Source of the DNA: Eledone cirrhosa | Taxonomy: Eukaryota | Length of the DNA stretch: 64,000 nt | Assembly (NCBI GenBank): GCA_964016885.1 | Contig: OZ024749.1 | Span: 11,780,001 to 11,844,000 of the forward strand | Direction: 5' to 3' | Shown here: positions 1 through 62,270 of the stretch, in pieces | How positions within the stretch are numbered: position 1 is the first letter of the stretch | How the letters are laid out: each line of letters begins with the position of its first letter | The notes under the pieces: model-generated | Database searches by the model: none | Seen by the model: only the letters and a program-made list of their open reading frames with translations | What the model was told of the DNA's origin: nothing | Made by a program: the position numbers and the translations under genes

Positions 1-3000
1 TGTAGGAAGATATTTCACAGGTGTATAACATTGATTGTAGGAAGATATTTCACAGGTATATAACATTGATTGTAGGAAGATATTTCACAGGTATATAACA
101 TTGATTGATTGTAGGAAGATATTTCACAGGTATATAGCATTCATATATAGCATTTATTGATTGTAGGAAGATATTTCACAGGTATATAACATTGATTGTA
201 GGAAGATATTTCACAGGTATATAACATTCATTGATTGTAGGAAGATATTTCACAGGTATATAACAATCATTGATTGTAGGAAGATATTTCACAGGTGTAT
301 AACATTCATTGATTGTAGGAAGATATTTCAAAGGTGTATAACATTCATTGATTGTAGGAAGATATTTCACAGGTGTATAACATTGATTGTAGGAAGATAT
401 TTCACAGGTGTATAACATTGATTGATTGTAGGAAGATATTTCACAGGTATATAACATTGATTGTAGGAAGATATTTCACAGGTATATAACATTGATTGTA
501 GGAAGATATTTCATAGGTGTATAACATTGATTGTAGGAAGATATTTCACAGGTGTATAACATTCATTGATTGTAGGAAGATATTTCACAGGTATATAACA
601 TTGATTGTAGGAAGATATTTCACAGGTATATAACATTCATTAATTGTAGGAAGATATTTCACAGGTGTATAACATTGATTGTAGGAAGATATTTCACAGG
701 TATATAACATTGATTGTAGGAAGATATTTCACAGGTGTATAACATTCATTGATTGTAGGAAGATATTTCACAGGTGTATAACATTCATTGATTGTAGGAA
801 GATATTTCACAGGTGTATAACATTCATTGATTGTAGGAAGATATTTCACAGGTGTATAACATTCATTGATTGTAGGAAGATATTTCACAGGTATATAACA
901 TTGATTGTAGGAAGATATTTCACAGGTATATAACATTCATTGATTGTAGGAAGATATTTCACAGGTATATAACATTGATTGATTGTAGGAAGATATTTCA
1001 CAGGTATATAACATTGATTGTAGGAAGATATTTCACAGGTGTATAACATTCATTGATTGTAGGAAGATATTTCACAGGTATATAACATTGATTGTAGGAA
1101 GATATTTCACAGGTGTATAGCATTCATTGATTGTAGGAAGATATTTCACAGGTATATAACATTGATTGTAGGAAGATATTTCACAGGTATATAACATTGA
1201 TTGTAGGAAGATATTTCACAGGTATATAACATTGATTGTAGGAAGATATTACACAGGTGTATAGCATTCATTGATTGTAGGAAGATATTTCACAGGTATA
1301 TAACATTGATTGTAGGAAGATATTTCACAGGTATATAACATTGATTGATTGTAGGAAGATATTTCAAAGGTGTATAACATTCATTGATTGTAGGAAGATA
1401 TTTCACAGGTATATAACATTGATTGTAGGAAGATATTTCACAGGTATATAACATTGATTGTAGGAAGATATTTCACAGGTATATAACATTGATTGTAGGA
1501 AGATATTTCACAGGTATATAACATTGATTGTAGGAAGATATTTCACAGGTATATAACATTGATTGTAGGAAGATATTTCACAGGTATATAACATTGATTG
1601 TAGGAAGATATTTCACAGGTATATAACATTGATTGTAGGAAGATATTTCACAGGTGTATAACATTGATTGTAGGAAGATATTTCAAAGGTGTATAACATT
1701 GATTGTAGTAAGATATTTCACAGGTGTATAACATTCATTGATTGTAGGAAGATATTTCACAGGTGTATAACATTGATTGTAGGAAGATATTTCACAGGTG
1801 TATAACATTGATTGTAGGAAGATATTTCACAGGTATATAACATTGATTGATTGTAGGAAGATATTTCACAGGTATATAACATTGATTGTAGGAAGATATT
1901 TCACAGGTATATAACATTGATTGTAGGAAGATATTTCACAGGTATATAACATTGATTGATTGTAGGAAGATATTTCACAGGTATATAACATTGATTGTAG
2001 GAAGATATTTCACAGGTGTATAACATTGATTGTAGGAAGATATTTCACAGGTGTATAACATTGATTGTAGGAAGATATTTCACAGGTGTATAACATTGAT
2101 TGTAGGAAGATATTTAACAGGTATATAACATTGATTGTAGGAAGATATTTCACAGGTGTATAACATTGATTGTAGGAAGATATTTCACAGGTGTATAACA
2201 TTGATTGTAGGAAGATATTTCACAGGTATATAACATTGATTGTAGGAAGATATTTCACAGGTGTATAACATTGATTGTAGGAAGATATTTCACAGGTATA
2301 TAACATTGATTGTAGGAAGATATTTCACAGGTATATAACATTGATTGATTGTAGGAAGATATTTCACAGGTGTATAACATTGATTGATTGTAGGAAGATA
2401 ATTTCACAGGTATATAACATTGATTGTAGGAAGATATTTCACAGGTATATAACATTGATTGATTGTAGGAAGATATTTCACAGGTGTATAACATTCATTG
2501 ATTGTAGGAAGATATTTCACAGGTATACAACATTGATTGTAGGAAGATATTTCACAGGTATATAACATTGATTGATTGTAGGAAGATATTTCACAGGTAT
2601 ATAACATTCATTGATTATAGGAAGATATTTCACAGGTATATAACATTGATTGTAGGAAGATATTTCACAGGTGTATAACATTCATTGATTGTAGGAAGAT
2701 ATTTCACAGGTATATAACATTCATTGATTGTAGGAAGATATTTCACAGGTATATAACATTGATTGTTGGAAGATATTTCACAGGTGTATAACATTCATTG
2801 ATTGTAGGAAGATATTTCACAGGTATATAACATTGATTGTAGGAAGATATTTCACAGGTGTATAACATTCATTGATTGTAGGAAGATATTTCACAGGTAT
2901 ATAACATTCATTGATTGTAGGAAGATATTTCACAGGTATATAACATTGATTGTAGGAAGATATTTCACAGGTGTATAACATTGATTGTAGGAAGATATTT

Positions 3001-6000
3001 CACAGGTATATAACATTGATTGTAGGAAGATATTTCACAGGTATATAACATTGATTGTAGGAAGATATTTCACAGGTGTATAACATTGATTGTAGGAAGA
3101 TATTTCACAGGTATATAACATTGATTGTAGGAAGATATTTCACAGGTGTATAACATTCATTGATTGTAGGAAGATATTTCACAGGTATATAACATTGATT
3201 GTAGGAAGATATTTCACAGGTATATAACATTGATTGATTGTAGGAAGATATTTCACAGGTATATAACATTGATTGTAGGAAGATATTTCACAGGTATATA
3301 ACATTGATTGTAGGAAGATATTTCACAGGTGTATAACATTCATTGATTGTAGGAAGATATTTCACAGGTATATAACATTGATTGTAGGAAGATATTTCAC
3401 AGCTGTATAACATTCATTGATTGTAGGAAGATATTTCACAGGTATATAACATTGATTGTAGGAAGATATTTCACAGGTGTATAACATTCATTGATTGTAG
3501 GAAGATATTTCACAGGTATATAACATTGATTGTAGGAAGATATTTCACAGGTGTATAACATTGATTGTAGGAAGATATTTCACAGGTGTATAACATTGAT
3601 TGTAGGAAGATATTTCACAGGTATATAACATTGATTGTAGGAAGATATTTCACAGGTGTATAACATTGATTGTAGGAAGATATTTCACAGGTATATAACA
3701 TTGATTGTAGGAAGATATTTCACATGTATATAACATTGATTGATTGTAGGAAGATATTTCACAGGTATATAGCATTCATATATAGCATTTATTGATTGTA
3801 GGAAGATATTTCACAGGTATATAACATTGATTGTAGGAAGATATTTCACAGGTATATAACATTCATTGATTGTAGGAAGATATTTCACAGGTATATAACA
3901 ATCATTGATTGTAGGAAGATATTTCACAGGTGTATAACATTCATTGATTGTAGGAAGATATTTCAAAGGTGTATAACATTCATTGATTGTAGGAAGATAT
4001 TTCACAGGTGTATAACATTGATTGTAGGAAGATATTTCACAGATGTATAACATTGATTGATTGTAGGAAGATATTTCACAGGTATATAACATTGATTGTA
4101 GGAAGATATTTCACAGGTATATAACATTGATTGTAGGAAGATATTTCATAGGTGTATAACATTGATTGTAGGAAGATATTTCACAGGTGTATAACATTCA
4201 TTGATTGTAGGAAGATATTTCACAGGTATATAACATTGATTGTAGGAAGATATTTCACAGGTATATAACATTCATTAATTGTAGGAAGATATTTCACAGG
4301 TGTATAACATTGATTGTAGGAAGATATTTCACAGGTATATAACATTGATTGTAGGAAGATATTTCACAGGTGTATAACATTCATTGATTGTAGAAGATAT
4401 TTCACAGGTGTATAACATTCATTGATTGTAGGAAGATATTTCACAGGTGTATAACATTCATTGATTGTAGGAAGATATTTCACAGGTGTATAACATTCAT
4501 TGATTGTAGGAAGATATTTCACAGGTATATAACATTGATTGTAGGAAGATATTTCACAGGTATATAACATTCATTGATTGTAGGAAGATATTTCACAGGT
4601 ATATAACATTGATTGATTGTAGGAAGATATTTCACAGTGTATATAACATTGATTGTAGGAAGATATTTCACAGGTGTATAACATTCATTGATTGTAGGAA
4701 GATATTTCACAGGGTATATAACATTGATTGTAGGAAGATATTTCACAGGTAGTATAGCATTCATTGATTGTAGGAAGATATTTCACAGGTATATAACATT
4801 GATTGTAGGAAGATATTTCACAGGTATATAACATTGATTGTAGGAAGATATTTCACAGGTATATAACATTGATTGTAGGAAGATATTTCACAGGTGTATA
4901 GCATTCATTGATTGTAGGAAGATATTTCACAGGTATATAACATTGATTGTAGGAAGATATTTCACAGGTATATAACATTGATTGATTGTAGGAAGATATT
5001 TCAAAGGTGTATAACATTCATTGAATTGTAGGAAGATATTTCACAGGTATATAACATTGATTGTAGGAAGATATTTCACAGGTATATAACATTGATTGTA
5101 GGAAGATATTTCACAGGTATATAACATTGATTGTAGGAAGATATTTCACAGGTATATAACATTGATTGTAGGAAGATATTTCACAGGTATATAACATTGA
5201 TTGTAGGAAGATATTTCACAGGTATATAACATTGATTGTAGGAAGATATTTCACAGGTATATAACATTGATTGTAGGAAGATATTTCACAGGTATATAAC
5301 ATTGATTGTAGGAAGATATTTCAAAGGTGTATAACATTGATTGTAGTAAGATATTTCACAGGTATATAATCATTGATTGTAGGAAGATATTTCACAGGTG
5401 TATAACATTGATTGTAGGAAGATATTTCACAGGTGTATAACATTGATTGTAGGAAGATATTTCACAGGTATATAACATTGATTGATTGTAGGAAGATATT
5501 TCACAGGTATATAACATTGATTGTAGGAAGATATTTCACAGGTATATAACATTGATTGTAGGAAGATATTTCACAGGTATATAACATTGATTGATTGTAG
5601 GAAGATATTTCACAGGTATATAACATTGATTGTAGGAAGATATTTCACAGGTGTATAACATTGATTGTAGGAAGATATTTCACAGGTGTATAACATTGAT
5701 TGTAGGAAGATATTTCACAGGTGTATAACATTGATTGTAGGAAGATATTTCACAGGTATATAACATTGATTGTAGGAAGATATTTCACAGGTGTATAACA
5801 TTGATTGTAGGAAGATATTTCACAGGTGTATAACATTGATTGTAGGAAGATATTTCACAGGTATATAACATTGATTGTAGGAAGATATTTCACAGGTGTA
5901 TAACATTGATTGTAGGAAGATATTTCACAGGTATATAACATTGATTGTAGGAAGATATTTCACAGGTATATAACATTGATTGATTGTAGGAAGATATTTC

Positions 6001-9000
6001 ACAGGTGTATAACATTGATTGATTGTAGGAAGATATTTCACAGGTATATAACATTGATTGTAGGAAGATATTTCACAGGTATATAACATTGATTGATTGT
6101 AGGAAGATATTTCACAGGTGTATAACATTCATTGATTGTAGGAAGATATTTCACAGGTATACAACATTGATTGTAGGAAGATATTTCACAGGTATATAAC
6201 ATTGATTGATTGTAGGAAGATATTTCACAGGTATATAACATTCATTGATTATAGGAAGATATTTCACAGGTATATAACATTGATTGTAGGAAGATATTTC
6301 ACAGGTGTATAACATTCATTGATTGTAGGAAGATATTTCACAGGTATATAACATTCATTGATTGTAGGAAGATATTTCACAGGTATATAACATTGATTGT
6401 TGGAAGATATTTCACAGGTGTATAACATTCATTGATTGTAGGAAGATATTTCACAGGTATATAACATTGATTGTAGGAAGATATTTCACAGGTGTATAAC
6501 ATTCATTGATTGTAGGAAGATATTTCACAGGTATATAACATTCATTGATTGTAGGAAGATATTTCACAGGTATATAACATTGATTGTAGGAAGATATTTC
6601 ACAGGTGTATAACATTGATTGTAGGAAGATATTTCACAGGTATATAACATTGATTGTAGGAAGATATTTCACAGGTATATAACATTGATTGTAGGAAGAT
6701 ATTTCACAGGTGTATAACATTGATTGTAGGAAGATATTTCACAGGTATATAACATTGATTGTAGGAAGATATTTCACAGGTGTATAACATTCATTGATTG
6801 TAGGAAGATATTTCACAGGTATATAACATTGATTGTAGGAAGATATTTCACAGGTATATAACATTGATTGATTGTAGGAAGATATTTCACAGGTATATAA
6901 CATTGATTGTAGGAAGATATTTCACAGGTATATAACATTGATTGTAGGAAGATATTTCACAGGTATATAACATTGATTGTAGGAAGATATTTCACAGGTA
7001 TATAACATTCATTAATTGTAGGAAGATATTTCACAGGTGTATAACATTGATTGTAGGAAGATATTTCACAGGTATATAACATTGATTGTAGGAAGATATT
7101 TCACAGGTGTATAACATTCATTGATTGTAGGAAGATATTTCACAGGTGTATAACATTCATTGATTGTAGGAAGATATTTCACAGGTGTATAACATTCATT
7201 GATTGTAGGAAGATATTTCACAGGTGTATAACATTCATTGATTGTAGGAAGATATTTCACAGGTATATAACATTGATTGTAGGAAGATATTTCACAGGTA
7301 TATAACATTCATTGATTGTAGGAAGATATTTCACAGGTATATAACATTGATTGATTGTAGGAAGATATTTCACAGGTATATAACATTGATTGTAGGAAGA
7401 TATTTCACAGGTGTATAACATTCATTGATTGTAGGAAGATATTTCACAGGTATATAACATTGATTGTAGGAAGATATTTCACAGGTGTATAGCATTCATT
7501 GATTGTAGGAAGATATTTCACAGGTATATAACATTGATTGTAGGAAGATATTTCACAGGTATATAACATTGATTGTAGGAAGATATTTCACAGGTATATA
7601 ACATTGATTGTAGGAAGATATTACACAGGTGTATAGCATTCATTGATTGTAGGAAGATATTTCACAGGTATATAACATTGATTGTAGGAAGATATTTCAC
7701 AGGTATATAACATTGATTGATTGTAGGAAGATATTTCAAAGGTGTATAACATTCATTGATTGTAGGAAGATATTTCACAGGTATATAACATTGATTGTAG
7801 GAAGATATTTCACAGGTATATAACATTGATTGTAGGAAGATATTTCACAGGTATATAACATTGATTGTAGGAAGATATTTCACAGGTATATAACATTGAT
7901 TGTAGGAAGATATTTCACAGGTATATAACATTGATTGTAGGAAGATATTTCACAGGTATATAACATTGATTGTAGGAAGATATTTCACAGGTATATAACA
8001 TTGATTGTAGGAAGATATTTCACAGGTGTATAACATTGATTGTAGGAAGATATTTCAAAGGTGTATAACATTGATTGTAGTAAGATATTTCACAGGTGTA
8101 TAACATTCATTGATTGTAGGAAGATATTTCACAGGTGTATAACATTGATTGTAGGAAGATATTTCACAGGTGTATAACATTGATTGTAGGAAGATATTTC
8201 ACAGGTATATAACATTGATTGATTGTAGGAAGATATTTCACAGGTATATAACATTGATTGTAGGAAGATATTTCACAGGTATATAACATTGATTGTAGGA
8301 AGATATTTCACAGGTATATAACATTGATTGATTGTAGGAAGATATTTCACAGGTATATAACATTGATTGTAGGAAGATATTTCACAGGTGTATAACATTG
8401 ATTGTAGGAAGATATTTCACAGGTGTATAACATTGATTGTAGGAAGATATTTCACAGGTGTATAACATTGATTGTAGGAAGATATTTCACAGGTATATAA
8501 CATTGATTGTAGGAAGATATTTCACAGGTGTATAACATTGATTGTAGGAAGATATTTCACAGGTGTATAACATTGATTGTAGGAAGATATTTCACAGGTA
8601 TATAACATTGATTGTAGGAAGATATTTCACAGGTGTATAACATTGATTGTAGGAAGATATTTCACAGGTATATAACATTGATTGTAGGAAGATATTTCAC
8701 AGGTATATAACATTGATTGATTGTAGGAAGATATTTCACAGGTGTATAACATTGATTGATTGTAGGAAGATATTTCACAGGTATATAACATTGATTGTAG
8801 GAAGATATTTCACAGGTATATAACATTGATTGATTGTAGGAAGATATTTCACAGGTGTATAACATTCATTGATTGTAGGAAGATATTTCACAGGTATACA
8901 ACATTGATTGTAGGAAGATATTTCACAGGTATATAACATTGATTGATTGTAGGAAGATATTTCACAGGTATATAACATTCATTGATTATAGGAAGATATT

Positions 9001-12000
9001 TCACAGGTATATAACATTGATTGTAGGAAGATATTTCACAGGTGTATAACATTCATTGATTGTAGGAAGATATTTCACAGGTATATAACATTCATTGATT
9101 GTAGGAAGATATTTCACAGGTATATAACATTGATTGTTGGAAGATATTTCACAGGTGTATAACATTCATTGATTGTAGGAAGATATTTCACAGGTATATA
9201 ACATTGATTGTAGGAAGATATTTCACAGGTGTATAACATTCATTGATTGTAGGAAGATATTTCACAGGTATATAACATTCATTGATTGTAGGAAGATATT
9301 TCACAGGTATATAACATTGATTGTAGGAAGATATTTCACAGGTGTATAACATTGATTGTAGGAAGATATTTCACAGGTATATAACATTGATTGTAGGAAG
9401 ATATTTCACAGGTATATAACATTGATTGTAGGAAGATATTTCACAGGTGTATAACATTGATTGTAGGAAGATATTTCACAGGTATATAACATTGATTGTA
9501 GGAAGATATTTCACAGGTGTATAACATTCATTGATTGTAGGAAGATATTTCACAGGTATATAACATTGATTGTAGGAAGATATTTCACAGGTATATAACA
9601 TTGATTGATTGTAGGAAGATATTTCACAGGTATATAACATTGATTGTAGGAAGATATTTCACAGGTATATAACATTGATTGTAGGAAGATATTTCACAGG
9701 TATATAACATTGATTGTAGGAAGACATTTCACAGGTGTATAACATTGATTGTAGGAAGATATTTCACAGGTATATAACATTGATTGTAGGAAGATATTTC
9801 ACAGGTATATAACATTGATTGTAGGAAGATATTTCACAGGTATATAATATTGATTGTAGGAAGATATTTCACAGGTATATAACATTGATTGTAGGAAGAT
9901 ATTTCACAGGTGTATATCATTCATTGATTGTAGGAAGATATTTCACAGGTATATAACATTGATTGTAGGAAGATATTTCACAGGTATATAACATTGATTG
10001 TAGGAAGATATTTCACAGGTGTATAACATTGATTGTAGGAAGATATTTCACAGGTATATAACATTGATTGTAGGAAGATATTTCACAGCTGTATAACATT
10101 GATTGTAGGAAGATATTTCACAGGTGTATAACATTCATTGATTGTAGGAAGATATTTCACAGGTATATAACATTGATTGTAGGAAGATATTTCACAGGTG
10201 TATAGCATTCATTGATTGTAGGAAGATATTTCACAGGTATATAACATTGATTGTAGGAAGATATTTCACAGGTATATAACATTGATTGCAGGAAGATATT
10301 TCACAGGTATATAACATTGATTGTAGGAAGATATTACACAGGTGTATAGCATTCATTGATTGTAGGAAGATATTTCACAGGTATATAACATTGATTGTAG
10401 GAAGATATTTCACAGGTATATAACATTGATTGATTGTAGGAAGATATTTCAAAGGTGTATAACATTCATTGATTGTAGGAAGATATTTCACAGGTATATA
10501 ACATTGATTGTAGGAAGATATTTCACAGGTATATAACATTGATTGATTGTAGGAAGATATTTCACAGGTATATAACATTGATTGTAGGAAGATATTTCAC
10601 AGGTATATAACATTGATTGTAGGAAGATATTTCACAGGTATATAACATTGATTGATTGTAGGAAGATATTTCACAGGTATATAACATTGATTGTAGGAAG
10701 ATATTTCACATGTGTATAACATTGATTGTAGGAAGATATTTCACAGGTGTATAACATTGATTGTAGGAAGATATTTCACAGGTGTATAACATTGATTGTA
10801 GGAAGATATTTCACAGGTATATAACATTGATTGTAGGAAGATATTTCACAGGTGTATAACATTGATTGTAGGAAGATATTTCACAGGTGTATAACATTGA
10901 TTGTAGGAAGATATTTCACAGGTATATAACATTGATTGTAGGAAGATATTTCACAGGTGTATAACATTGATTGTAGGAAGATATTTCACAGGTATATAAC
11001 ATTGATTGTAGGAAGATATTTCACAGGTATATAACATTGATTGTAGGAAGATATTTCACAGGTATATAACATTGATTGTAGGAAGATATTTCACAGGTGT
11101 ATAACATTCATTGATTGTAGGAAGATATTTCACAGGTATATAACATTGATTGTAGGAAGATATTTCACAGGTGTATAACATTGATTGTAGGAAGATATTT
11201 CACAGGTGTATAACATTGATTGTAGGAAGATATTTCACAGGTATATAACATTGATTGATTGTAGGAAGATATTTCACAGGTATATAACATTGATTGTAGG
11301 AAGATATTTCACAGGTATATAACATTGATTGTAGGAAGATATTTCACAGGTATATAACATTGATTGATTGTAGGAAGATATTTCACAGGTATATAACATT
11401 GATTGTAGGAAGATATTTCACAGGTGTATAACATTGATTGTAGGAAGATATTTCACAGGTGTATAACATTGATTGTAGGAAGATATTTCACAGGTGTATA
11501 ACATTGATTGTAGGAAGATATTTCACAGGTATATAACATTGATTGTAGGAAGATATTTCACAGGTGTATAACATTGATTGTAGGAAGATATTTCACAGGT
11601 GTATAACATTGATTGTAGGAAGATATTTCACAGGTATATAACATTGATTGTAGGAAGATATTTCACAGGTGTATAACATTGATTGTAGGAAGATATTTCA
11701 CAGGTATATAACATTCATTGATTGTAGGAAGATATTTCACAGGTATATAACATTGATTGTAGGAAGATATTTCACAGGTGTATAACATTGATTGTAGGAA
11801 GATATTTCACAGGTATATAACATTGATTGTAGGAAGATATTTCACAGGTATATAACATTGATTGATTGTAGGAAGATATTTCACAGGTGTATAACATTCA
11901 TTGATTGTAGGAAGATATTTCACAGGTATATAACATTGATTGTAGGAAGATATTTCACAGGTATATAACATTGATTGTAGGAAGATATTTCACAGGTATA

Positions 12001-36000: not shown

Positions 36001-39000
36001 ATTGTAGGAAGATATTTCACAGGTGTATAACATTCATTGATTGTAGGAAGATATTTCACAGGTGTATAACATTGATTGTAGGAAGATATTTCACAGGTGT
36101 ATAACATTTATTGTAGGAAGATATTTCACAGGTATATAACATTGATTGATTGTAGGAAGATATTTCACAGGTATATAACATTGATTGTAGGAAGATATTT
36201 CACAGGTATATAACATTGATTGTAGGAAGATATTTCACAGGTATTTAACATTGATTGATTGTAGGAAGATATTTCACAGGTATATAACATTGATTGTAGG
36301 AAGATATTTCACAGGTGTATAACATTGATTGTAGGAAGATATTTCACAGGTGTATAACATTGATTGTAGGAAGATATTTCACAGGTATATAACATTGATT
36401 GTAGGAAGATATTTCACAGGTATATAACATTGATTGTAGGAAGATATTTCACAGGTGTATAACATTGATTGTAGGAAGATATTTCACAGGTATATAACAT
36501 TGATTGTAGGAAGATATTTCACAGGTATATAACATTGATTGATTGTAGGAAGATATTTCACAGGTGTATAACATTCATTGATTGTAGGAAGATATTTCAC
36601 AGGTATATAACATTGATTGTAGGAAGATATTTCACAGGTATATAACATTGATTGATTGTAGGAAGATATTTCACAGGTATATAACATTCATTGATTGTAG
36701 GAAGATATTTCACAGGTATATAACATTGATTGTAGGAAGATATTTCACAGGTGTATAACATTGATTGTAGGAAGATATTTCACAGGTATATAACATTCAT
36801 TGTTTGTAGGAAGATATTTCACAGGTATATAACATTGATTGATTGTAGGAAGATATTTCACAGGTATATAACATTGATTGATAGTAGGAAGATATTTCAC
36901 AGGTATATAACATTGATTGTAGGAAGATATTTCACAGGTATATAACATTGATTGTAGGAAGATATTTCACAGGTGTATAACATTCATTGATTGTAGGAAG
37001 ATATTTCACAGGTATATAACATTGATTGTAGGAAGATATTTCACAGGTGTATAACATTCATTGATTGTAGGAAGATATTTCACAGGTATATAACATTGAT
37101 TGTAGGAAGATATTTCACAGGTGTATAACATTCTTTGATTGTAGGAAGATATTTCACAGGTATATAACATTGATTGTAGGAAGATATTTCACAGGTGTAT
37201 AACATTCATTGATTGTAGGAAGATATTTCACAGGTATATAACATTCATTGATTGTAGGAAGATATTTCACAGGTATATAACATTGATTGTAGGAAGATAT
37301 TTCACAGGTGTATAACATTGATTGTAGGAAGATATTTCACAGGTATATAACATTGATTGTAGGAAGATATTTCACAGGTATATAACATTGATTGTAGGAA
37401 GATATTTCACAGGTGTATAACATTGATTGTAGGAAGATATTTCACAGGTGTATAACATTGATTGTAGGAAGATATTTCACAGGTGTATAACATTGATTGT
37501 AGGAAGATATTTCACAGGTATATAACATTGATTGTAGGAAGATATTTCACAGGTGTATAACATTGATTGTAGGAAGATATTTCACAGGTGTATAACATTG
37601 ATTGTAGGAAGATATTTCACAGGTATATAACATTGATTGTAGGAAGATATTTCACAGGTGTATAACATTGATTGTAGGAAGATATTTCACAGGTATATAA
37701 CATTGATTGTAGGAAGATATTTCACAGGTATATAACATTGATTGATTGTAGGAAGATATTTCACAGGTGTATAACATTCATTGATTGTAGGAAGATATTT
37801 CACAGGTATATAACATTGATTGTGGGAAGATATTTCACAGGTATATAACATTGATTGATTGTAGGAAGATATTTCACAGGTGTATAACATTCATTGATTG
37901 TAGGAAGATATTTCACAGGTATATAACATTGATTGTAGGAAGATATTTCACAGGTATATAACATTGATTGATTGTAGGAAGATATTTCACAGGTATATAA
38001 CATTCATTGATTATAGGAATATATTTCACAGGTATATAACATTGATTGTAGGAAGATATTTCACAGGTGTATAACATTCATTGATTGTAGGAAGATATTT
38101 CACAGGTATATAACATTGATTGTAGGAAGATATTTCACAGGTGTATAACATTCATTGATTGTAGGAAGATATTTCACAGGTATATAACATTCATTGATTG
38201 TAGGAAGATATTTCACAGGTATATAACATTGATTGTAGGAAGATATTTCACAGGTGTATAACATTGATTGTAGGAAGATATTTCACAGGTATATAACATT
38301 GATTGTAGGAAGATATTTCACAGGTATATAACATTGATTGTAGGAAGATATTTCACAGGTGTATAACATTGATTGTAGGAAGATATTTCACAGGTATATA
38401 ACATTGATTGTAGGAAGATATTTCACAGGTGTATAACATTCATTGATTGTAGGAAGATATTTCACAGGTATATAACATTGATTGTAGGAAGATATTTCAC
38501 AGGTATATAACATTGATTGATTGTAGGAAGATATTTCACAGGTATATAACATTGATTGTAGGAAGATATTTCACAGGTGTATAACATTCATTGATTGTAG
38601 GAAGATATTTCACAGGTATATAACATTGATTGTAGGAAGATATTTCACAGGTATATAACATTGATTGTAGGAAGATATTTCACAGGTATATAACATTGAT
38701 TGTAGGAAGATATTTCACAGGTGTATAACATTCATTGATTGTAGGAAGATATTTCACAGGTGTATAACATTGATTGTAGGAAGATATTTCACAGGTGTAT
38801 AACATTTATTGTAGGAAGATATTTCACAGGTATATAACATTGATTGATTGTAGGAAGATATTTCACAGGTATATAACATTGATTGTAGGAAGATATTTCA
38901 CAGGTATATAACATTGATTGATTGTAGGAAGATATTTCACAGGTATATAACATTGATTGTAGGAAGATATTTCACAGGTGTATAACATTGATTGTAGGAA

Positions 39001-42000
39001 GATATTTCACAGGTGTATAACATTGATTGTAGGAAGATATTTCACAGGTGTATAACATTGATTGTAGGAAGATATTTCACAGGTATATAACATTGATTGT
39101 AGGAAGATATTTCACAGGTATATAACATTGATTGTAGGAAGATATTTCACAGGTATATAACATTGATTGATTGTAGGAAGATATTTCACAGGTATATAAC
39201 ATTGATTGTAGGAAGATATTTCACAGGTATATAACATTGATTGTAGGAAGATATTTCACAGGTGTATAACATTGATTGTAGGAAGATATTTCACAGGTAT
39301 ATAACATTGATTGTAGGAAGATATTTCACAGGTATATAACATTGATTGATTGTAGGAAGATATTTCACAGGTGTATAACATTCATTGATTGTAGGAAGAT
39401 ATTTCACAGGTATATAACATTGATTGTAGGAAGATATTTCACAGGTATATAACATTGATTGATTGTAGGAAGATATTTCACAGGTATATAACATTCATTG
39501 ATTGTAGGAAGATATTTCACAGGTATATAACATTGATTGTAGGAAGATATTTCACAGGTGTATAACATTGATTGTAGGAAGATATTTCACAGGTATATAA
39601 CATTCATTGATTGTAGGAAGATATTTCACAGGTATATAACATTGATTGATTGTAGGAAGATATTTCACAGGTATATAACATTGATTGATAGTAGGAAGAT
39701 ATTTCACAGGTATATAACATTGATTGTAGGAAGATATTTCACAGGTATATAACATTGATTGTAGGAAGATATTTCACAGGTGTATAACATTCATTGATTG
39801 TAGGAAGATATTTCACAGGTATATAACATTGATTGTAGGAAGATATTTCACAGGTGTATAACATTCATTGATTGTAGGAAGATATTTCACAGGTATATAA
39901 CATTGATTGTAGGAAGATATTTCACAGGTGTATAACATTCATTGATTGTAGGAAGATATTTCACAGGTATATAACATTGATTGTAGGAAGATATTTCACA
40001 GGTGTATAACATTCATTGATTGTAGGAAGATATTTCACAGGTATATAACATTCATTGATTGTAGGAAGATATTTCACAGGTATATAACATTAATTGTAGG
40101 AAGATATTTCACAGGTGTATAACATTGATTGTAGGAAGATATTTCACAGGTATATAACATTGATTGTAGGAAGATATTTCACAGGTATATAACATTGATT
40201 GTAGGAAGATATTTCACAGGTGTATAACATTGATTGTAGGAAGATATTTCACAGGTATATAACATTGATTGTAGGAAGATATTTCACAGGTGTATAACAT
40301 TCATTGATTGTAGGAAGATATTTCACAGGTGTATAACATTGATTGTAGGAAGATATTTCACAGGTATATAACATTGATTGTAGGAAGATATTTCACAGGT
40401 GTATAACATTGATTGTAGGAAGATATTTCACAGGTATATAACATTGATTGTGGGAAGATATTTCACAGGTATATAACATTGATTGATTGTAGGAAGATAT
40501 TTCACAGGTGTATAACATTCATTGATTGTAGGAAGATATTTCACAGGTATATAACATTGATTGTAGGAAGATATTTCACAGGTATATAACATTGATTGAT
40601 TGTAGGAAGATATTTCACAGGTATATAACATTCATTGATTATAGGAATATATTTCACAGGTATATAACATTGATTGTAGGAAGATATTTCACAGGTGTAT
40701 AACATTCATTGATTGTAGGAAGATATTTCACAGGTATATAACATTGATTGTAGGAAGATATTTCACAGGTGTATAACATTCATTGATTGTAGGAAGATAT
40801 TTCACAGGTATATAACATTCATTGATTGTAGGAAGATATTTCACAGGTATATAACATTGATTGTAGGAAGATATTTCACAGGTGTATAACATTGATTGTA
40901 GGAAGATATTTCACAGGTATATAACATTGATTGTAGGAAGATATTTCACAGGTATATAACATTGATTGTAGGAAGATATTTCACAGGTGTATAACATTGA
41001 TTGTAGGAAGATATTTCACAGGTATATAACATTGATTGTAGGAAGATATTTCACAGGTGTATAACATTCATTGATTGTAGGAAGATATTTCACAGGTATA
41101 TAACATTGATTGTAGGAAGATATTTCACAGGTATATAACATTGATTGATTGTAGGAAGATATTTCACAGGTATATAACATTGATTGTAGGAAGATATTTC
41201 ACAGGTGTATAACATTCATTGATTGTAGGAAGATATTTCACAGGTATATAACATTGATTGTAGGAAGATATTTCACAGGTATATAACATTGATTGTAGGA
41301 AGATATTTCACAGGTATATAACATTGATTGTAGGAAGATATTTCACAGGTGTATAACATTCATTGATTGTAGGAAGATATTTCACAGGTGTATAACATTG
41401 ATTGTAGGAAGATATTTCACAGGTGTATAACATTTATTGTAGGAAGATATTTCACAGGTATATAACATTGATTGATTGTAGGAAGATATTTCACAGGTAT
41501 ATAACATTGATTGTAGGAAGATATTTCACAGGTATATAACATTGATTGTAGGAAGATATTTCACAGGTATATAACATTGATTGATTGTAGGAAGATATTT
41601 CACAGGTATATAACATTGATTGTAGGAAGATATTTCACAGGTGTATAACATTGATTGTAGGAAGATATTTCACAGGTGTATAACATTGATTGTAGGAAGA
41701 TATTTCACAGGTGTATAACATTGATTGTAGGAAGATATTTCACAGGTATATAACATTGATTGTAGGAAGATATTTCACAGGTATATAACATTGATTGTAG
41801 GAAGATATTTCACAGGTATATAACATTGATTGATTGTAGGAAGATATTTCACAGGTATATAACATTGATTGTAGGAAGATATTTCACAGGTATATAACAT
41901 TGATTGTAGGAAGATATTTCACAGGTGTATAACATTGATTGTAGGAAGATATTTCACAGGTATATAACATTGATTGTAGGAAGATATTTCACAGGTATAT

Positions 42001-45000
42001 AACATTGATTGATTGTAGGAAGATATTTCACAGGTGTATAACATTCATTGATTGTAGGAAGATATTTCACAGGTATATAACATTGATTGTAGGAAGATAT
42101 TTCACAGGTATATAACATTGATTGATTGTAGGAAGATATTTCACAGGTATATAACATTCATTGATTGTAGGAAGATATTTCACAGGTATATAACATTGAT
42201 TGTAGGAAGATATTTCACAGGTGTATAACATTGATTGTAGGAAGATATTTCACAGGTATATAACATTCATTGATTGTAGGAAGATATTTCACAGGTATAT
42301 AACATTGATTGATTGTAGGAAGATATTTCACAGGTATATAACATTGATTGATAGTAGGAAGATATTTCACAGGTATATAACATTGATTGTAGGAAGATAT
42401 TTCACAGGTATATAACATTGATTGTAGGAAGATATTTCACAGGTGTATAACATTCATTGATTGTAGGAAGATATTTCACAGGTATATAACATTGATTGTA
42501 GGAAGATATTTCACAGGTGTATAACATTCATTGATTGTAGGAAGATATTTCACAGGTATATAACATTGATTGTAGGAAGATATTTCACAGGTGTATAACA
42601 TTCATTGATTGTAGGAAGATATTTCACAGGTATATAACATTGATTGTAGGAAGATATTTCACAGGTGTATAACATTGATTGTAGGAAGATATTTCACAGG
42701 TGTATAACATTGATTGTAGGAAGATATTTCACAGGTATATAACACTGATTGTAGGAAGATATTTCACAGGTGTATAACATTGATTGTAGGAAGATATTTC
42801 ACAGGTATATAACATTGATTGTAGGAAGATATTTCACAGGTATATAACATTGATTGATTGTATGAAGATATTTCACAGGTATATAGCATTCATATATAGC
42901 ATTCATTGATTGTAGGAAGATATTTCACAGGTATATAACATTGATTGTAGGAAGATATTTCACAGGTATATAACATTCATTGATTGTAGGAAGATATTTC
43001 ACAGGTATATAACATTCATTGATTGTAGGAAGATATTTCACAGGTGTATAACATTCATTGATTGTAGGAAGATATTTCAAAGGTGTATAACATTCATTGA
43101 TTGTAGGAAGATATTTCACAGGTGTATAACATTGATTGTAGGAAGATATTTCACAGGTGTATAACATTGATTGATTGTAGGAAGATATTTCACAGGTATA
43201 TAACATTGATTGTAGGAAGATATTTCACAGGTATATAACATTGATTGTAGGAAGATATTTCATAGGTTTATAACATTGATTGTAGGAAGATATTTCACAG
43301 GTGTATAACATTCATTGATTGTAGGAAGATATTTCACAGGTATATAACATTGATTGTAGGAAGATATTTCACAGGTATATAACATTCATTGATTGTAGGA
43401 AGATATTTCACAGGTGTATAACATTGATTGTAGGAAGATATTTCACAGGTATATAACATTGATTGTAGGAAGATATTTCACAGGTGTATAACATTCATTG
43501 ATTGTAGGAAGATATTTCACAGGTGTATAACATTCATTGATTGTAGGAAGATATTTCACAGGTGTATAACATTCATTGATTGTAGGAAGATATTTCACAG
43601 GTGTATAACATTCATTGATTGTAGGAAGATATTTCACAGGTATATAACATTGATTGTAGGAAGATATTTCAAAGGTATATAACATTCATTGATTGTAGGA
43701 AGATATTTCACAGGTATATAACATTGATTGATTGTAGGAAGATATTTCACAGGTATATAACATTGATTGTAGGAAGATATTTCACAGGTGTATAACATTC
43801 ATTGATTGTAGGAAGATATTTCACAGGTATATAACATTGATTGTAGGAAGATATTTCACAGGTATATAACATTGATTGTAGGAAGATATTTCACAGGTAT
43901 ATAACATTCATTGATTGTAGGAAGATATTTCACAGGTATATAACATTGATTGTAGGAAGATATTTCACAGGTATATAACATTGATTGTAGGAAGATATTT
44001 CACAGGTATATAACATTAATTGTAGGAAGATATTTCACAGGTATATAACATTGATTGTAGGAAGATATTTCACAGGTGTATAACATTGATTGTAAGAAGA
44101 TATTTCACAGGTATATAACATTGATTGTAGGAAGATATTTCACAGGTATATAACATTGATTGTAGGAAGATATTTCACAGGTATATAACATTCATTGATT
44201 GTAGGAAGATATTTCACAGGTACATAACATTGATTGTAGGAAGATATTTCACAGGTACATAACATTGATTGTAGGAAGATATTTCACAGGTATATAACAT
44301 TGATTGTAGGAAGATATTTCACAGGTATATAACATTGATTGTAGGAAGATATTTCACAGGTATATAACATTGATTGTAGGAAGATATTTCACAGGTGTAT
44401 AACATTCATTGATTGTAGGAAGATATTTCACAGGTATATAACATTGATTGTAGGAAGATATTTTACAGGTGTATAACATTGATTGTAGGAAGATATTTCA
44501 CAGGTATATAACATTCATTGATTGTAGGAAGATATTTCACAGGTGTATAACATTCATTGATTGTAGGAAGATATTTCACAGGTGTATAACATTGATTGTA
44601 GGAAGATATTTCACAGGTATATAACATTGATTGTAGGAAGATATTTCACAGGTATATAACATTCATTGATTGTAGGAAGATATTTCACAGGTGTATAACA
44701 TTCATTGATTGTAGGAAGATATTTCACAGGTGTATAACATTGATTGTAGGAAGATATTTCACAGGTATATAACATTGATTGTAGGAAGATATTTCACAGG
44801 TATATAACATTCATTGATTGTAGGAAGATATTTCACAGGTATATAACATTGATTGTAGGAAGATATTTCACAGGTATATAACATTGATTGTAAGAAGATA
44901 TTTCACAGGTGTATAACATTGATTGTAGGAAGATATTTCACAGGTGTATAATATTGATTGTGGGAAGATATTTCACAGGTATATAACATTGATTGTAGGA

Positions 45001-47518
45001 AGATATTTCACAGGTATATAACATTGATTGTAGGAAGATATTTAACAGGTGTATAACATTCATTGATTGTAGGAAGATATTTCACAGGTATATAACATTG
45101 ATTGTAGGAAGATATTTCACAGGTGTATAACATTCATTGATTGTAGGAAGATATTTCACAGGTATATAACATTGATTGTAGGAAGATATTTCACAGGTGT
45201 ATAACATTGATTGTAGGAAGATATTTCACAGGTGTATAACATTGATTGTAGGAAGATATTTCACAGGTGTATAACATTGATTGTAGGAAGATATTTCACA
45301 GGTATATAACATTGATTGTAGGAAGATATTTCACAGGTATATAACATTGATTGATTGTAGGAAGATATTTCACAGGTATATAGCATTCATATATAGCATT
45401 CATTGATTGTAGCAAGATATTTCACAGGTATATAACATTGATTGTAGGAAGATATTTCACAGGTATATAACATTCATTGATTGTAGGAAGATATTTCACA
45501 GGTATATAACATTCATTGATTGTAGGAAGATATTTCACAGGTGTATAACATTCATTGATTGTAGGAAGATATTTCAAAGGTGTATAACATTCTTTGATTG
45601 TAGGAAGATATTTCACAGGTGTATAACATTGATTGTAGGAAGATATTTCACAGGTGTATAACATTGATTGATTGTAGGAAGATATTTCACAGGTATATAA
45701 CATTGATTGTAGGAAGATATTTCACAGGTATATAACATTGATTGTAGGAAGATATTTCATAGGTTTATAACATTGATTGTAGGAAGATATTTCACAGGTG
45801 TATAACATTCATTGATTGTAGGAAGATATTTCACAGGTATATAACATTGATTGTAGGAAGATATTTCACAGGTATATAACATTCATTGATTGTAGGAAGA
45901 TATTTCACAGGTGTATAACATTGATTGTAGGAAGATATTTCACAGGTATATAACATTGATTGTAGGAAGATATTTCACAAGTGTATAACATTCATTGATT
46001 GTAGGAAGATATTTCACAGGTGTATAACATTCATTGATTGTAGGAAGATATTTCACAGGTGTATAACATTCATTGATTGTAGGAAGATATTTCACAGGTG
46101 TATAACATTCATTGATTGTAGGAAGATATTTCACAGGTATATAACATTGATTGTAGGAAGATATTTCACAGGTATATAACATTCATTGATTGTAGGAAGA
46201 TATTTCACAGGTATATAACATTGATTGATTGTAGGAAGATATTTCACAGGTATATAACATTGATTGTAGGAAGATATTTCACAGGTGTATAACATTCATT
46301 GATTGTAGGAAGATATTTCACAGGTATATAACATTGATTGTAGGAAGATATTTCACAGGTATATAACATTGATTGTAGGAAGATATTTCACAGGTATATA
46401 ACATTGATTGTAGGAAGATATTTCACAGGTATATAACATTCATTGATTGTAGGAAGATATTTCACAGGTATATAACATTAATTGTAGGAAGATATTTCAC
46501 AGGTATATAACATTGATTGTAGGAAGATATTTCACAGGTGTATAACATTGATTGTAAGAAGATATTTCACAGGTATATAACATTGATTGTAGGAAGATAT
46601 TTCACAGGTATATAACATTGATTGTAGGAAGATATTTCACAGGTATATAACATTCATTGATTGTAGGAAGATATTTCACAGGTACATAACATTGATTGTA
46701 GGAAGATATTTCACAGGTACATAACATTGATTGTAGGAAGATATTTCACAGGTATATAACATTGATTGTAGGAAGATATTTCACAGGTATATAACATTGA
46801 TTGTAGGAAGATATTTCACAGGTATATAACATTGATTGTAGGAAGATATTTCACAGGTGTATAACATTCATTGATTGTAGGAAGATATTTCACAGGTATT
46901 TAACATTGATTGTAGGAAGATATTTTACAGGTGTATAACATTGATTGTAGGAAGATATTTCACAGGTATATAACATTCATTGATTGTAGGAAGATATTTC
47001 ACAGGTGTATAACATTCATTGATTGTAGGAAGATATTTCACAGGTGTATAACATTGATTGTAGGAAGATATTTCACAGGTATATAACATTGATTGTAGGA
47101 AGATATTTCACAGGTATATAACATTCATTGATTGTAGGAAGATATTTCACAGGTGTATAACATTCATTGATTGTAGGAAGATATTTCACAGGTGTATAAC
47201 ATTGATTGTAGGAAGATATTTCACAGGTATATAACATTGATTGTAGGAAGATATTTCACAGGTATATAACATTCATTGATTGTAGGAAGATATTTCACAG
47301 GTATATAACATTGATTGTAGGAAGATATTTCACAGGTATATAACATTGATTGTAAGAAGATATTTCACAGGTGTATAACATTGATTGTAGGAAGATATTT
47401 CACAGGTGTATAACATTGATTGTAGGAAGATATTTCACAGGTATATAACATTGATTGTAGGAAGATATTTCACAGGTATATAACATTGATTGTAGGAAGA
47501 TATTTCACAGGTGTATAA
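1..47518. repeat. Tandem satellite/minisatellite array, 35-bp unit with 39-bp variants, roughly 1,300 copies, continuing upstream of the window
   Basis: Consensus TTGATTGTAGGAAGATATTTCACAGGT(A/G)TATAACA (35 bp, 10/35 GC, no CpG). The 39-bp variants carry an extra TTCA or TTGA, and a rarer longer variant reads TATAGCATTCATATATAGCATT. There are no unique spacers. The array ends abruptly at ...CACAGGTGTATAA|TAAACATTAAC. Copy number is estimated as length / ~36 bp. Confidence 0.99.
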
Positions 47519-47570
47519 TAAACATTAACAATTAGACATTTAAAAAATAAAAACTTTTTCTTTTATTTTT

Positions 47571-47930
47571 TTCAGTCATCTGACTGCAACCATGCTAGGG
47601 CACCACCTTGAAGGGATTGAGTCAATCATATTGATCCTGGCTAGTTAATTTCTTCAAGGCTGCTAATTATTTTATCAATCTCGTTTTGTTGAACTGCCGA
47701 GATATATTGCATAAATAAACAGACACAGTAACATACACACACGCACACACATGCACACAGGCAACATATATATGCACGCATATATATGTTGGGCTTCTGC
47801 ATAGTTTCCATCTACCAAATTTCACTCCTAATGCATTGGTCAAACTGAAGCTATATTCAAAGACACTTATTCAAGGTATCACATTGAACCCCAAACCACA
47901 TGGTTGTGAAGCAGATTTCTTCAACCTGCC
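47571..47930 (-). mobile_element. Decayed tRNA-derived SINE (octopus-type), reverse orientation
   Basis: TTCAGTCATCTGACTGCAACCATGCTAGGGCACCACCTTGAAGG...(CA)n/(TA)n core...CTTATTCAAGGTATCACATTGAACCCCAAACCACATGGTTG, with a B-box-like GGGTTCAA on the minus strand near 47885. It matches my recollection of an abundant Octopus SINE; no database check was possible. Confidence 0.7.
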
Positions 47931-47947
47931 CCTTATTTAATATAAAA

Positions 47948-48100
47948 GGGCAGTGGATTGGCATTTAGTTAGGGCCCTTTTCATTCTGAGTTTAAATCAC
48001 ACCAAGGTCATCTTTGCCTTTCATCATTGTGAGGGTCAATAAAATAATGTACCAGTAAAATACTGGGCTGATTTAATAAAATTTCCCCTCCACCAAAATT
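47948..48100 (+). mobile_element. Diverged, internally deleted tRNA-SINE copy (same family as 49139-49550 and 52211-52806)
   Basis: GTGGATTGGCA...CTGAGTTTAAATCACACCAAGGTCATCTTTGCCTTTCATCATT...GGGTCAATAAAATAATGTACCAGTAAAATACTGGG shares the family core. Confidence 0.7.
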
Positions 48101-48127
48101 ATTTATTATTTAATCTATATAAACATA

Positions 48128-49035
48128 CTGTTCTTCTCATCAAGAGTTTCTACAACAACTTCACCTGTAGAGTAGGGAACAGTGACTCTAGCTTCAAAGT
48201 GAAAACAGGAGTGAGGCAAGGATGTGTGATGTTAGCATTCCTCTTCAACTTTGCTATCGACTGGGTGATTGAACATCTGCTGGAACTTCAACATTGGATG
48301 ATTTTTATTTTGCAAATGTTCTGGCTCTAATGTTTCATATGCCTCAACACATGCAAGAGAAAACACCTCATCTCAACCAATAGAGGAAGCCAAAGATCAG
48401 CCAGAAGTCATCACCATGAACACCGCTAACCCCTTACCTATTCAAGTAAATGGACAACATCTACTAATACTTTCATGGGTAGCACTGTTACAAATGATGA
48501 AAGGGCAGGTAAGGACATTAAAACCCGACTCCGCAAAGCCAGAAATGCCATCAAAATGCTCAACAATGTATGGAGATCTCAATTGAGAATATATCAGAGC
48601 TGTGTTGTTTCCACCCTTATGTACAGCTCAGAATGCTGGTGAATGACAGATAATGACCTGACTAAACAGTCAGTCTTTCACACAAAGAATCTTAGAAGAA
48701 TCCTTAACATTTTTTGACCTGAAAAGATCTCCAGTGAGGAATTGCTGGGTAGATGCCAATAGGAGAAAATGTCAGCAATCCTTCTCAGAAGAAGATGGAA
48801 GTGGATAGGGTATGTTCTCAGAAGAGAGGATGGTAGCATCCTAAGAACAGCCCTTCACTGGACAGCAGAAGGCAAGGGAAAACGAGGAAGGTCAAAGAAC
48901 AATTGAAGGAGAGCAGAAGACCTGGCAACACACATAGGGTACCATCCAGAAGCTGTCCCAGGACAGACAGGAGTTGAGGACCTTTGTTGCTGCCCTACAT
49001 GCTAGAGTGGGCATGACAGGCAGTAGTAGTATTAG
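48128..49035 (+). mobile_element. 5'-truncated, degenerate RTE-clade LINE (RT C-half and 3' end)
   Basis: Translates as LIKSFYNNFTCRVGNSDSSFKVKTGVRQGCVMLAFLFNFAIDWV (RT motif), a decayed FADD region, [35 protein letters not shown] and TIQKLSQDRQELRTFVAALHA, followed by an (AGT)n tail. Contains stops and frameshifts. Confidence 0.85.
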
Positions 49036-49138
49036 TACTTTGAAGCACTGAATGCTATCAAACATTTTCAAATAGCTGTAAATTTATTTTGGTATTGATC
49101 AAAGTGCTCGAATATTATAGGGTATTATATATAAATAA

Positions 49139-49550
49139 AGTGGATTGGTAGTATCGGTAGAGGGTCGGACGCCATGATTTGTAGCATAGAGTTACGGCCC
49201 TTTACGGTCTGAATTCAAATCCCGCTGAGGTTAACTTAGCTTTTCATCCTTATGGGGTCAATAAAATAAAATACCAGTAATGCACTGGAGGGAATTGCTG
49301 GCCTTGTGCCAAAAGAAGAAACAATTATCATTATTATTATTTGAGACTTTGAGGGCGATGGATTGGCAGTATCGCTAGAGAGTCGGACGCCATGCTTTCC
49401 AGCATAGTTACGTCCCTTTACTATCTGAGTTCAAATCCAGACGAGGTTGACTTTGCCTTTCATCCTTATGGGGTCGATAAAATAAAGTACCAGTAATGCA
49501 TTGGGTAATTGATGGCCTTGTGCCTAAAGTAGAAACAATTATTATTATTT
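49139..49550 (+). mobile_element. Two tandem tRNA-derived SINE copies (~49139-49340 and ~49353-49550)
   Basis: Each has an A-box-like GGATTGG(T/C)AGTATCG, a B-box-like GA(A/G)TTCAAATCC, a core like GCCTTTCATCCTTATGGGGTCGATAAAATAAAGTACCAG (resembles the MetaSINE-type central domain, from recall) and a tail GGCCTTGTGCC..AAAG.AGAAACA(ATT)n. Confidence 0.85.
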
Positions 49551-49968
49551 GAGACTTCCTTTGAATTCTGCTTCTTTCCCAAATCAAGCCGAATGTCAAC
49601 CTGGCACAATTTACATTCAATTGTTACACAAAAGATGCCACAAGAATACAAACAACAGCAAATGTCCTTGACAAGTTTTGAATTGGTAATGCTGCCCTTC
49701 TCAGGAAATGGGCAGTACCAGTCAGCACTATTTTCTGTATTTCTTGCAGGTATCTGGTCCAAATATTTTTCAGTTCCCTTTTTTATCATTTCAAGTGCAT
49801 CGACTTTCATTGGTATTGTACAGGCCTGAAGATGGCACATTTTCTCAATTTCAATTGATAGATCTTTATACTTACTGAGCTTTCCTAACTCTTTTGAGGA
49901 GATGTTACGATCTGATGGAATGTTCATGTCATTTAAGAAACATGTTTTCTTTTTATGGTCCTTCTCAA
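49551..49968 (-). mobile_element. 3' fragment of an R4/Dong-clade (restriction-like endonuclease) LINE
   Basis: ORF 49466-49927(-) starts MNIPSDRNISSKELGKLSKYKDLSIEIEKM...ALEMIKKG, the RLE C-terminus (D..IP.D.N..KE.K..KY.DL). The minus-strand 3' end runs into (AAT)n. Confidence 0.8.
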
Positions 49969-50023
49969 TATTATTATTATTGTTATTATGGGCTTACTCT
50001 GAGTATGTGCCTGTAAATTGAAG

Positions 50024-50059
<36 letters not shown>

Positions 50060-50061
50060 AG

Positions 50062-50105
50062 CAAGAAAGGCATCTCATTTGTTGGCCATGTATTAATCTC
50101 TTCAA
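50062..50105 (+). CDS. SHOC1: Internal coding exon (44 nt, phase 0/2) of a SHOC1/Zip2-like meiotic crossover gene: [14 protein letters not shown](N)
   Basis: Acceptor ACAG at 50058-50061 and perfect donor GTAAGT at 50106. It joins the next exon in frame (AA+T=Asn). The joined motif PCIN.(F/L)..AQL.L matches the SHOC1 motif as I recall it from vertebrates ([20 protein letters not shown]); this needs BLAST confirmation. Confidence 0.75.
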
Positions 50106-52857: not shown

Positions 52858-52960
52858 TGCTCAATTAATTTTGAAATCCATTTCACTCAAAGACTTTATG
52901 AAGATGTCTTCAGAAGACTTCAAAGTTAAATTCAGCAACATATCTCCAAATGTTTTCCAT
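52858..52960 (+). CDS. SHOC1: Internal coding exon (103 nt, phase 2/0) of the SHOC1-like gene: [34 protein letters not shown]
   Basis: Polypyrimidine acceptor TTTTTTTTCATTAG, donor GTAAGT at 52961, open frame, and phases compatible with both neighbouring exons. Unique sequence lying between repeats. Confidence 0.8.
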
Positions 52961-57661: not shown

Positions 57662-57730
57662 CATATATAATATGGCATTATATTTTATATAGGTGTTTCA
57701 AACTATTGCAAATGAAGACAACAGCTTAAA
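57430..57730 (+). repeat. Direct duplication of the splice acceptor and first 38 nt of the large exon, separated by a ~37-nt RTE 3' tail
   Basis: TTTTATATAG|GTGTTTCAAACTATTGCAAATGAAGA(A/C)AACAGCTTAAA occurs at 57488-57525 and 57693-57730, each preceded by GTGTGTGTGGTG(TA)n. The insert is CAGCATAGAAAAATGGACGTTAAAG(GAT)4 at ~57526-57562. Confidence 0.9.
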
Positions 57731-59162: not shown

Positions 59163-59275
59163 TATTTTGGTGTTTAAAATGTAACCTTAACTCTCTCTTT
59201 TCCATATATTAATGAAAAACACTGCCTATGATTTTCAAATATATCATATTTATATATATATCTGATATATATATG

Positions 59276-59310
<35 letters not shown>

Positions 59311-59545
59311 AGAGGGTGTTAAAGTTTGCTTGAAGCATTGTGAAATGTGTAAAATATGTAGTTTAGAAAGCAACTTTTCCCCCGTTGATGGGCGTGAGCC
59401 CGAAATATTGGGATTAAATCTCCTCTACGGTAACCCTTCTACCTTTGTTTTGTTTTCATTTTCATTTTCACTTTTCTCCTATTTCTCACTCACTTCTTAC
59501 CTCGAGATTTCCCATCTGCATTGTTGTGGCTTTCTAAACTACATA
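59311..59545 (+). mobile_element. Probable Penelope-like element terminal-repeat remnant with a degenerate minimal hammerhead, flanked by (TA)n
   Basis: TCCC-CCGTTGA-T-GGGC GTGA GCCC-GAAAT-ATT-GGGA at 59378-59413 has type I minimal hammerhead topology with two changes in the core. Confidence 0.5.
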
Positions 59546-59579
59546 TTTTATATATATATATATAGATATATATATATAC

Positions 59580-59615
<36 letters not shown>

Positions 59616-59619
<4 letters not shown>

Positions 59620-61998: not shown

Positions 61999-62086
61999 AT
62001 ATCACAATAAATTAACGGAGCCATAGACACCTGCTATTCCCTGTCAATAATTTGCTCAAAGGAAAAGGAATCCCGAGCTCTTTAAA

Positions 62087-62195: not shown

Positions 62196-62208
62196 ATACA
62201 TATATATA

Positions 62209-62270
62209 CATCATCATCATTTTACGTCCACTTTTCCCTGCTTGCAAGGGTGGGACGGGTCTTATTCAGC
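62209..62270 (-). mobile_element. Very short RTE/SINE 3' tail fragment
   Basis: (CAT)4 TTTACGTCCACTTTTCCCTGCTTGCAAGGGTGGGACGGG is approximately the reverse complement of 61937-61990. Confidence 0.7.

Follow-up and report, generated by a model that had tools for sequence, protein, structure and literature searches.

A 68.6-kb tandem array in SHOC1 intron 23 of Eledone cirrhosa, with units that resemble an exon end and its splice donor

The array and exon 23

The stretch of DNA analysed (the window) is 64,000 nt of the Eledone cirrhosa genome (3.0 Gb), at positions 11780001–11844000 of contig OZ024749.1, which is abbreviated C9 in the coordinates below. The analysis also covered flanks of 160 kb on the upstream side and 40 kb on the downstream side. 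The window contains part of a tandem array located in intron 23 of an orthologue of the meiotic gene SHOC1. This part (window positions 1–47518; all features described here by window position are on the forward strand) consists of 1,299 units of 35 or 39 bp, rarely 44 or 52 bp. A further 21 kb of array, holding 578 more units, is found upstream of the window. The whole array begins at C9:11758933 and has 1,877 units of 35 or 39 bp in 68.6 kb, and there are no N bases in the array region (264 kb examined). Each unit is a copy of an exon end followed by a GT(A/G)TAT donor, and the units are arranged head to tail. Most units in the window belong to five types, 35 or 39 bp in length, which differ by A or G at intron position +3 and by a 4-bp slip.

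A whole-genome search with a 25-mer of the unit, allowing up to two mismatches, gives 1,877 matches, and all 1,877 are at this locus; matches on the reverse strand and matches to a reversed-control 25-mer are both zero. An exact 22-mer likewise has 1,730 of 1,730 genome matches here. A first-pass annotation of the window had inferred an amplification in place of more than 1,000-fold and had predicted a single locus for the monomer; these counts bear out the single locus.

The first unit of the array is the end of exon 23 itself (C9:11758824–11758958), with the real donor at C9:11758959. Exon 23 is 135 nt, has an open reading frame, is preceded by a T-rich AG acceptor and ends in WLKEDISQ followed by GT. 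It has a single match in the genome. The exon end and the 39-bp unit share 26 of 28 nt, and the two differences convert the W and K codons to TGA and TAG in the units. WLKEDIS is present at this place in Octopus bimaculoides, O. vulgaris, O. sinensis and Argonauta. Since W and K are kept in these four cephalopod orthologues, the exon represents the older state and the units are derived. It had been proposed from the window that the monomer is the amplified exon end and donor of a SHOC1-like gene, that the 5' edge of the array would merge into an open exon, and that cephalopod orthologues would have an EDISQ-like exon end; all three agree with what is found at exon 23.

At the 3' edge, the final exon-end copy and the presumed ancestral intron start are at 47487–47526. 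The copy (47487–47510) is intronic and contains two stops, the coding copy being the first unit, outside the window. Its GT is at 47511, as first reported. The array had also been said to stop 8 nt into the intron; the exact unit match does end there, but after a 4-nt gap the likeness continues to about +16. After the last donor there are 4 extra nt compared with the units, and then 6 nt of unit sequence again. Thus the exon part is in its old state at the 5' edge, and the intron part is likely in its old state at the 3' edge. Old states at the edges together with a changed spacer in the inner units form the pattern that would be expected of one tandem duplication followed by amplification. 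The rest of intron 23 (47527–50061) is not array; it contains dispersed repeats and ends in an (ATT)n-ACAG acceptor. Intron 23 is 71,103 nt in all, and the other introns of the gene are at most 11.4 kb.

The array almost certainly arose from the end of SHOC1 exon 23 and its splice donor. Large arrays are common in the E. cirrhosa genome, and an unrelated satellite inserted into the intron could resemble the exon end by accident. However, the coding exon itself supplies the first unit and is conserved in orthologues, and the unit is found nowhere else in the genome, so that an accidental likeness is extremely improbable.

The SHOC1 gene and the choice of donor

The gene model, built with Octopus proteins, has 27 exons in 183 kb (C9:11661752–11844547). 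Joining donor 1 to exon 24 (50062–50105, phase 0 to 2) gives 1,571 codons without an internal stop, and 26 of 26 introns are GT-AG. The phase 0 start at 50062 was predicted correctly in the first-pass annotation and is preceded by AG. Between exons 6 and 8 the phase is continuous through a further exon, located with the O. sinensis protein. Exon 23 matches PF17825 above the cut-off and the Octopus proteins at 78–82%, and the core of the protein is identical to that of O. sinensis at 472 of 598 positions. Relatives in O. bimaculoides, abalone, scallop, duck and frog carry the name SHOC1 (cluster names). The view of the host as a meiotic gene with open frames is in accord with a SHOC1 orthologue with an intact 1,571-aa frame. 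Sequence searches of solved structures found nothing below E 0.35 (SHOC1 ERCC4-(HhH)2 fold), and a PF17825 family search of the genome gave no match anywhere, the controls likewise being without a match.

The exon 23–24 junction was aligned in 58 homologues (three cephalopod sequences and the next 55 of 128 representatives), of which 55 passed the score filter. The junction is free of insertions in all 55; a 3-residue gap is found in one, and another diverges after the junction. The W and the E at +2 are each retained in 53 of 55. Vertebrate-type sequences fall in the gapless register that the first-pass annotation gave for vertebrate SHOC1. By Pfam numbering, the junction would be near human residue 1045. 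A human SHOC1 fragment that ends at residue 1041 is without (HhH)2 and has weaker DNA binding, as described in PMC5962103, and in mouse a missense change in the XPF-like domain leads to sterility, according to PMC13245411. Expression of SHOC1 in meiosis and its part in crossover formation are described for mouse and human in these two sources. On the basis of the Pfam numbering and the fragment in PMC5962103, any later donor is predicted to truncate the protein ahead of the (HhH)2 region or inside it.

The GT is kept in 1,863 of the 1,877 units, and 1,180 have the 9-mer of the real donor (1,179 later donors and the real one). Splice matrices were derived from the gene's own sites, and with a matrix from the other 25 donors this 9-mer is in the top 1% of intronic GTs. 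A premature stop results from all 1,876 later donors, at 26–35 codons past the junction in the seven cases listed, and one-unit pseudo-exons are frameshifted or contain a stop in 1,875 of 1,875 cases. Structural masking of the later donors was considered and rejected; the unpaired probability is 0.44 at donor 1 and 0.29–0.51 at nine others. Folding does not single out donor 1 but the acceptor 135 nt upstream does, and a first-donor choice by exon definition is therefore the best reading. In human F7, the most upstream of 5–9 identical donors is the sole one used, as described in PMC1557585. The SHOC1 gene is probably still spliced correctly from donor 1, although with less certainty than attaches to the origin of the array.

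The intron might instead be removed stepwise by recursive splicing, the unit CAG|GT acting as an acceptor and then as a regenerated donor, so that whole units are lost and the same exon end is restored. AG|GT is present in 1,858 of 1,877 units and CAG|GT in 1,822 of 1,877, duplicated AGGT can serve as both donor and acceptor (PMC3443670), and the intron is 71 kb compared with 11.4 kb or less for the others. The acceptor score of the unit CAG is, however, -3.4 to -4.8 bits, which is under all 26 true sites (1.6 to 15.7 bits), and 34–44% of random intronic AGs score as well. Two other AGs are located just upstream of the CAG in each unit, and the gene-derived matrix shows no strong acceptor context before the unit AG of the type that characterizes ratchet sites. 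Recursive removal is quite unlikely.

A second alternative arises from the A-to-T change in the units, which created a TAG acceptor. The motif AG, 15 nt, GT is present in 1,834 of 1,877 units, and the 15 nt that encode EDISQ, between TAG and GT, could act as a micro-exon. Its occasional inclusion would keep the frame and extend the linker ahead of the (HhH)2 region. The TAG scores of 1.0 to 3.3 bits are at the bottom of the true-site range, and 0 of 55 homologues have an insertion at the junction, which makes such inclusion very unlikely. Both uses of the unit AG appear possible but are low-scoring.

Growth of the array and a proposed account

The unit cores differ by 0.4% per site (99.6% alike). 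Exact blocks of up to 95 units are repeated at offsets of 54–605 units, compared with 9–12 units in five shuffles, and most rare unit variants are restricted to parts of the array. This suggests that the array grew by stepwise block duplication. Seven units of odd length (36, 40, 75 and 77 bp) are clustered at window positions 2350–5350 (C9:11782350–11785342) and likely represent thin assembly consensus.

The account proposed here, with a probability of about 0.78, is that of an exon-end and donor repeat that began with one short duplication, expanded at its site through unequal exchange and is removed entire from the first donor. The start would be one short tandem duplication of the exon 23 end and its donor. 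The spacer between the first two copies would then have gained two substitutions in the exon copy and the 4-nt difference in the intron copy, and this altered spacer would have been amplified while both edges kept the older states. Growth would have taken place through unequal exchange, in blocks of tens of units. Donor 1 would be selected through exon definition on a first-come basis, the mode of choice demonstrated in human F7. The array is likely spliced out entire, as no donor but the first follows an acceptor-defined exon, and transcripts from slips to donors 2–3 would be eliminated as nonsense. The best reading of the repeat is as passenger DNA that is tolerated, the genome being one in which short local sequences are often amplified.

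The array could also aid its own removal, either as a ladder of recursive sites or as U1 landing sites that carry transcription through 69 kb, with growth occurring only after a poly(A) signal was lost. The sole AATAAA of the array is at 47517, at the 3' edge and inside the 4-nt difference. Through this difference the amplified unit is without AATAAA, which leaves 68.6 kb without a canonical poly(A) signal; the loss is one event and not a statistic. Such a function is doubtful. If true, an essential single-copy meiotic gene would be spliced correctly across about 1,900 copies of its donor by means of a satellite born of a splice junction, and length variation could tune the output of a crossover gene.

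Several points weigh against the proposed account. Use of the first donor is predicted from sequence, with splice matrices derived from 25 sites. Human 6-16 and CBS also use two pseudo-donors, as described in PMC1557585. An intact frame is no proof of function if the expansion is recent, and a 43-aa segment that the Octopus models have in the tail was not found in E. cirrhosa, the frame being kept without it. In a relative rate comparison with Argonauta taken as outgroup, the E. cirrhosa sequence has 55 changes of its own and Octopus has 34 (685 sites, chi2 5.0). With distant outgroups the counts are 21/18, 20/10 and 21/13 against Octopus, and 26/29, 22/18 and 19/28 against Argonauta. These differences are small and mixed, and the rate excess of this SHOC1 appears slight and not clear. 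Read depth implies about 565–600 copies of unit words that number about 1,100 in the assembly.

The depth values are from short-read contigs of one sample, possibly the assembly's own, in which unit words have a depth of 850–4,650 compared with 5–8 for one single-copy contig; contig depth cannot be equated with copy number, and a single contig in each run provides the single-copy baseline. Read depth confirms a large array, and a shorter second allele, bias or over-assembly could explain the shortfall. The ratio of A to G donors in the reads is 60:40 and 61:39, compared with 59:41 in the assembly. No read contig spans the exon at the 5' edge in three runs of this sample, where the unit is at hundreds of times single-copy depth. 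Array reads in three reduced-representation runs of other samples are zero, and these runs are uninformative on the array.

The array may be real but its length overstated by the assembly, e.g., through two haplotypes or duplicated blocks placed end to end. A depth ratio of about 0.5–0.55, exact repeats of up to 3.5 kb and the clustering of the seven odd-length units, like thin consensus, are consistent with this. On the other hand, there is no N in 264 kb, rare variants shift gradually along the array with no exact repeat longer than 95 units, and the donor A:G ratio is equal in reads and assembly. An overstated length is unlikely, and half the size would still represent about 900 donors.

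Another, rather improbable reading is that the array in its giant form is an allele of recent origin and mild harm, which may be confined to one haplotype and which lowers the amount of correct SHOC1 mRNA through slippage between donors or through early termination. The 99.6% likeness of the unit cores would fit a recent origin, and a depth of about half the assembled count is as expected with a short other haplotype. The predicted truncation from every later donor and the slight rate excess point the same way. However, three differences from the edges are common to the inner units, so the repeat as such has some age; the depth is subject to the limits given above, the frame is intact and the gene is single-copy.

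Related repeats and downstream sequence

The SHOC1 gene has 25 minisatellites, and after collapsing arrays 16 are within 200 bp of a splice site (4.0 expected; reached in 0 of 3,000 simulations). Three span a donor (exons 10, 19 and 23), compared with 0.39 expected (p 0.007). The second donor repeat, at C9:11751573–11751767, has a 16-bp unit with the exon 19 end and GTAAGTT in about 12 copies; it is 77% matched and thus more decayed than the exon 23 array. The third spans the exon 10 donor (C9:11717594–11717803) and has three copies of a 67-bp unit. A 10.3-kb array of 63-bp units (C9:11698874–11709208) stops 30 bp short of the exon 9 acceptor.

As controls, 53 exons from myosin genes (best 30 of 72 matches) and tRNA-synthetase genes (all 23) were used; their edges are profile matches and some of the loci overlap. 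An array is found within 200 bp on 11 of 106 control sides and 14 of 54 SHOC1 sides. Among the controls, 11 of 32 nearest arrays are within 200 of 1,500 bp (p ~0.002, overlapping loci kept). Minisatellites therefore cluster beside exons in both SHOC1 and the controls, for which a neutral explanation is that sequence near exons is protected from deletion. Repeated donors are present at 3 of 26 SHOC1 donors and 0 of 53 controls (p 0.03). An excess specific to SHOC1 is not established, as without the ascertained array the comparison is 2 of 25 with 0 of 53 (p 0.10). Four of 40 sampled 10-kb stretches of the genome are wholly array (25–57 bp units), and arrays cover 13–19% of sampled bases; size alone is thus unexceptional in this genome.

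The SHOC1 array has the properties of exon-intron-spanning minisatellites: the unit spans an exon end and donor, the donor is repeated, and the sequence is found at its own locus only. Such repeats are described for F7, 6-16, CBS, LAMIN B2 and PDGF, with up to 25 pseudo-donors (Borensztajn et al., PMC1557585); the numbers given there are 25 pseudo-sites for 6-16, 15–20 for CBS, 10–15 for LAMIN B2 and 16–18 for PDGF. The 37-bp variable number tandem repeat of human F7 intron 7 is comparable in the features described in PMC1557585: a first unit that spans the exon end and donor, identical donors that continue into the intron, and a similar unit length. The human repeats have 5–26 units, whereas the SHOC1 array has 1,877 units in 68.6 kb with multi-kb blocks, a copy number about 75 times the largest in that source. 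The exon part of each unit is 24–28 nt in SHOC1 but 4 nt in F7, and donor choice was demonstrated in F7 (PMC1557585) and is predicted from sequence in SHOC1.

In amphioxus, exon-intron boundary repeats in the Adh3 and globin genes are named 'mirages' in PMC3087553. As in SHOC1, the boundary is tandemly duplicated, the edges are outside homogenisation and there are several cases per lineage; the globin case has 3–6 units, compared with almost 1,900 in the present array, and SHOC1 contains three repeats of this type. Intron gain by tandem duplication of AGGT, as described in PMC3443670, is similar in that AG|GT can be donor and acceptor and the coding sequence is unchanged. The SHOC1 repeat differs in that it heads an intron with its own unique 3' part and acceptor, and its internal acceptors score poorly. 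The fertility genes of the Drosophila Y also have a satellite-filled intron in a presumed germ-line gene; those introns are far larger, and the account in PMC11207136 does not describe the satellites as splice-junction copies.

In the literature searched, from which subscription journals and supplements were outside coverage, no array of similar size was found. The first-pass annotation knew of no described case on this scale. Exon-end and donor repeats have already been described (PMC1557585, PMC3087553), but this scale was not found in print. New here are the scale, the multi-kb block structure and the presence of three such repeats in one gene. It is rare that the birth of a satellite can be followed as in this satellite-sized array, where the sequence shows, at the level of single bases, the seed, both edges and the direction of change. 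It would extend the first-donor model of F7 from fewer than 30 competitors to about 1,900, each wrong choice truncating the protein. The existence of a known class and the abundance of large local arrays in this genome make the case less surprising.

Downstream of the array and exon 24, exon 25 is at 52858–52960 (phase 2 to 0) and exon 26 at 57693–59148; the latter is 1,456 nt and encodes a poorly conserved tail. The last SHOC1 exon, also on the forward strand, is just beyond the window (C9:11844456–11844547). The sequence at 59149–64000, which is without a match to the 43-aa Octopus SHOC1 tail segment, is intron sequence. It contains, at about 59650–61620, a reverse-transcriptase element that we take from its motifs to be LINE-like (long interspersed nuclear element).

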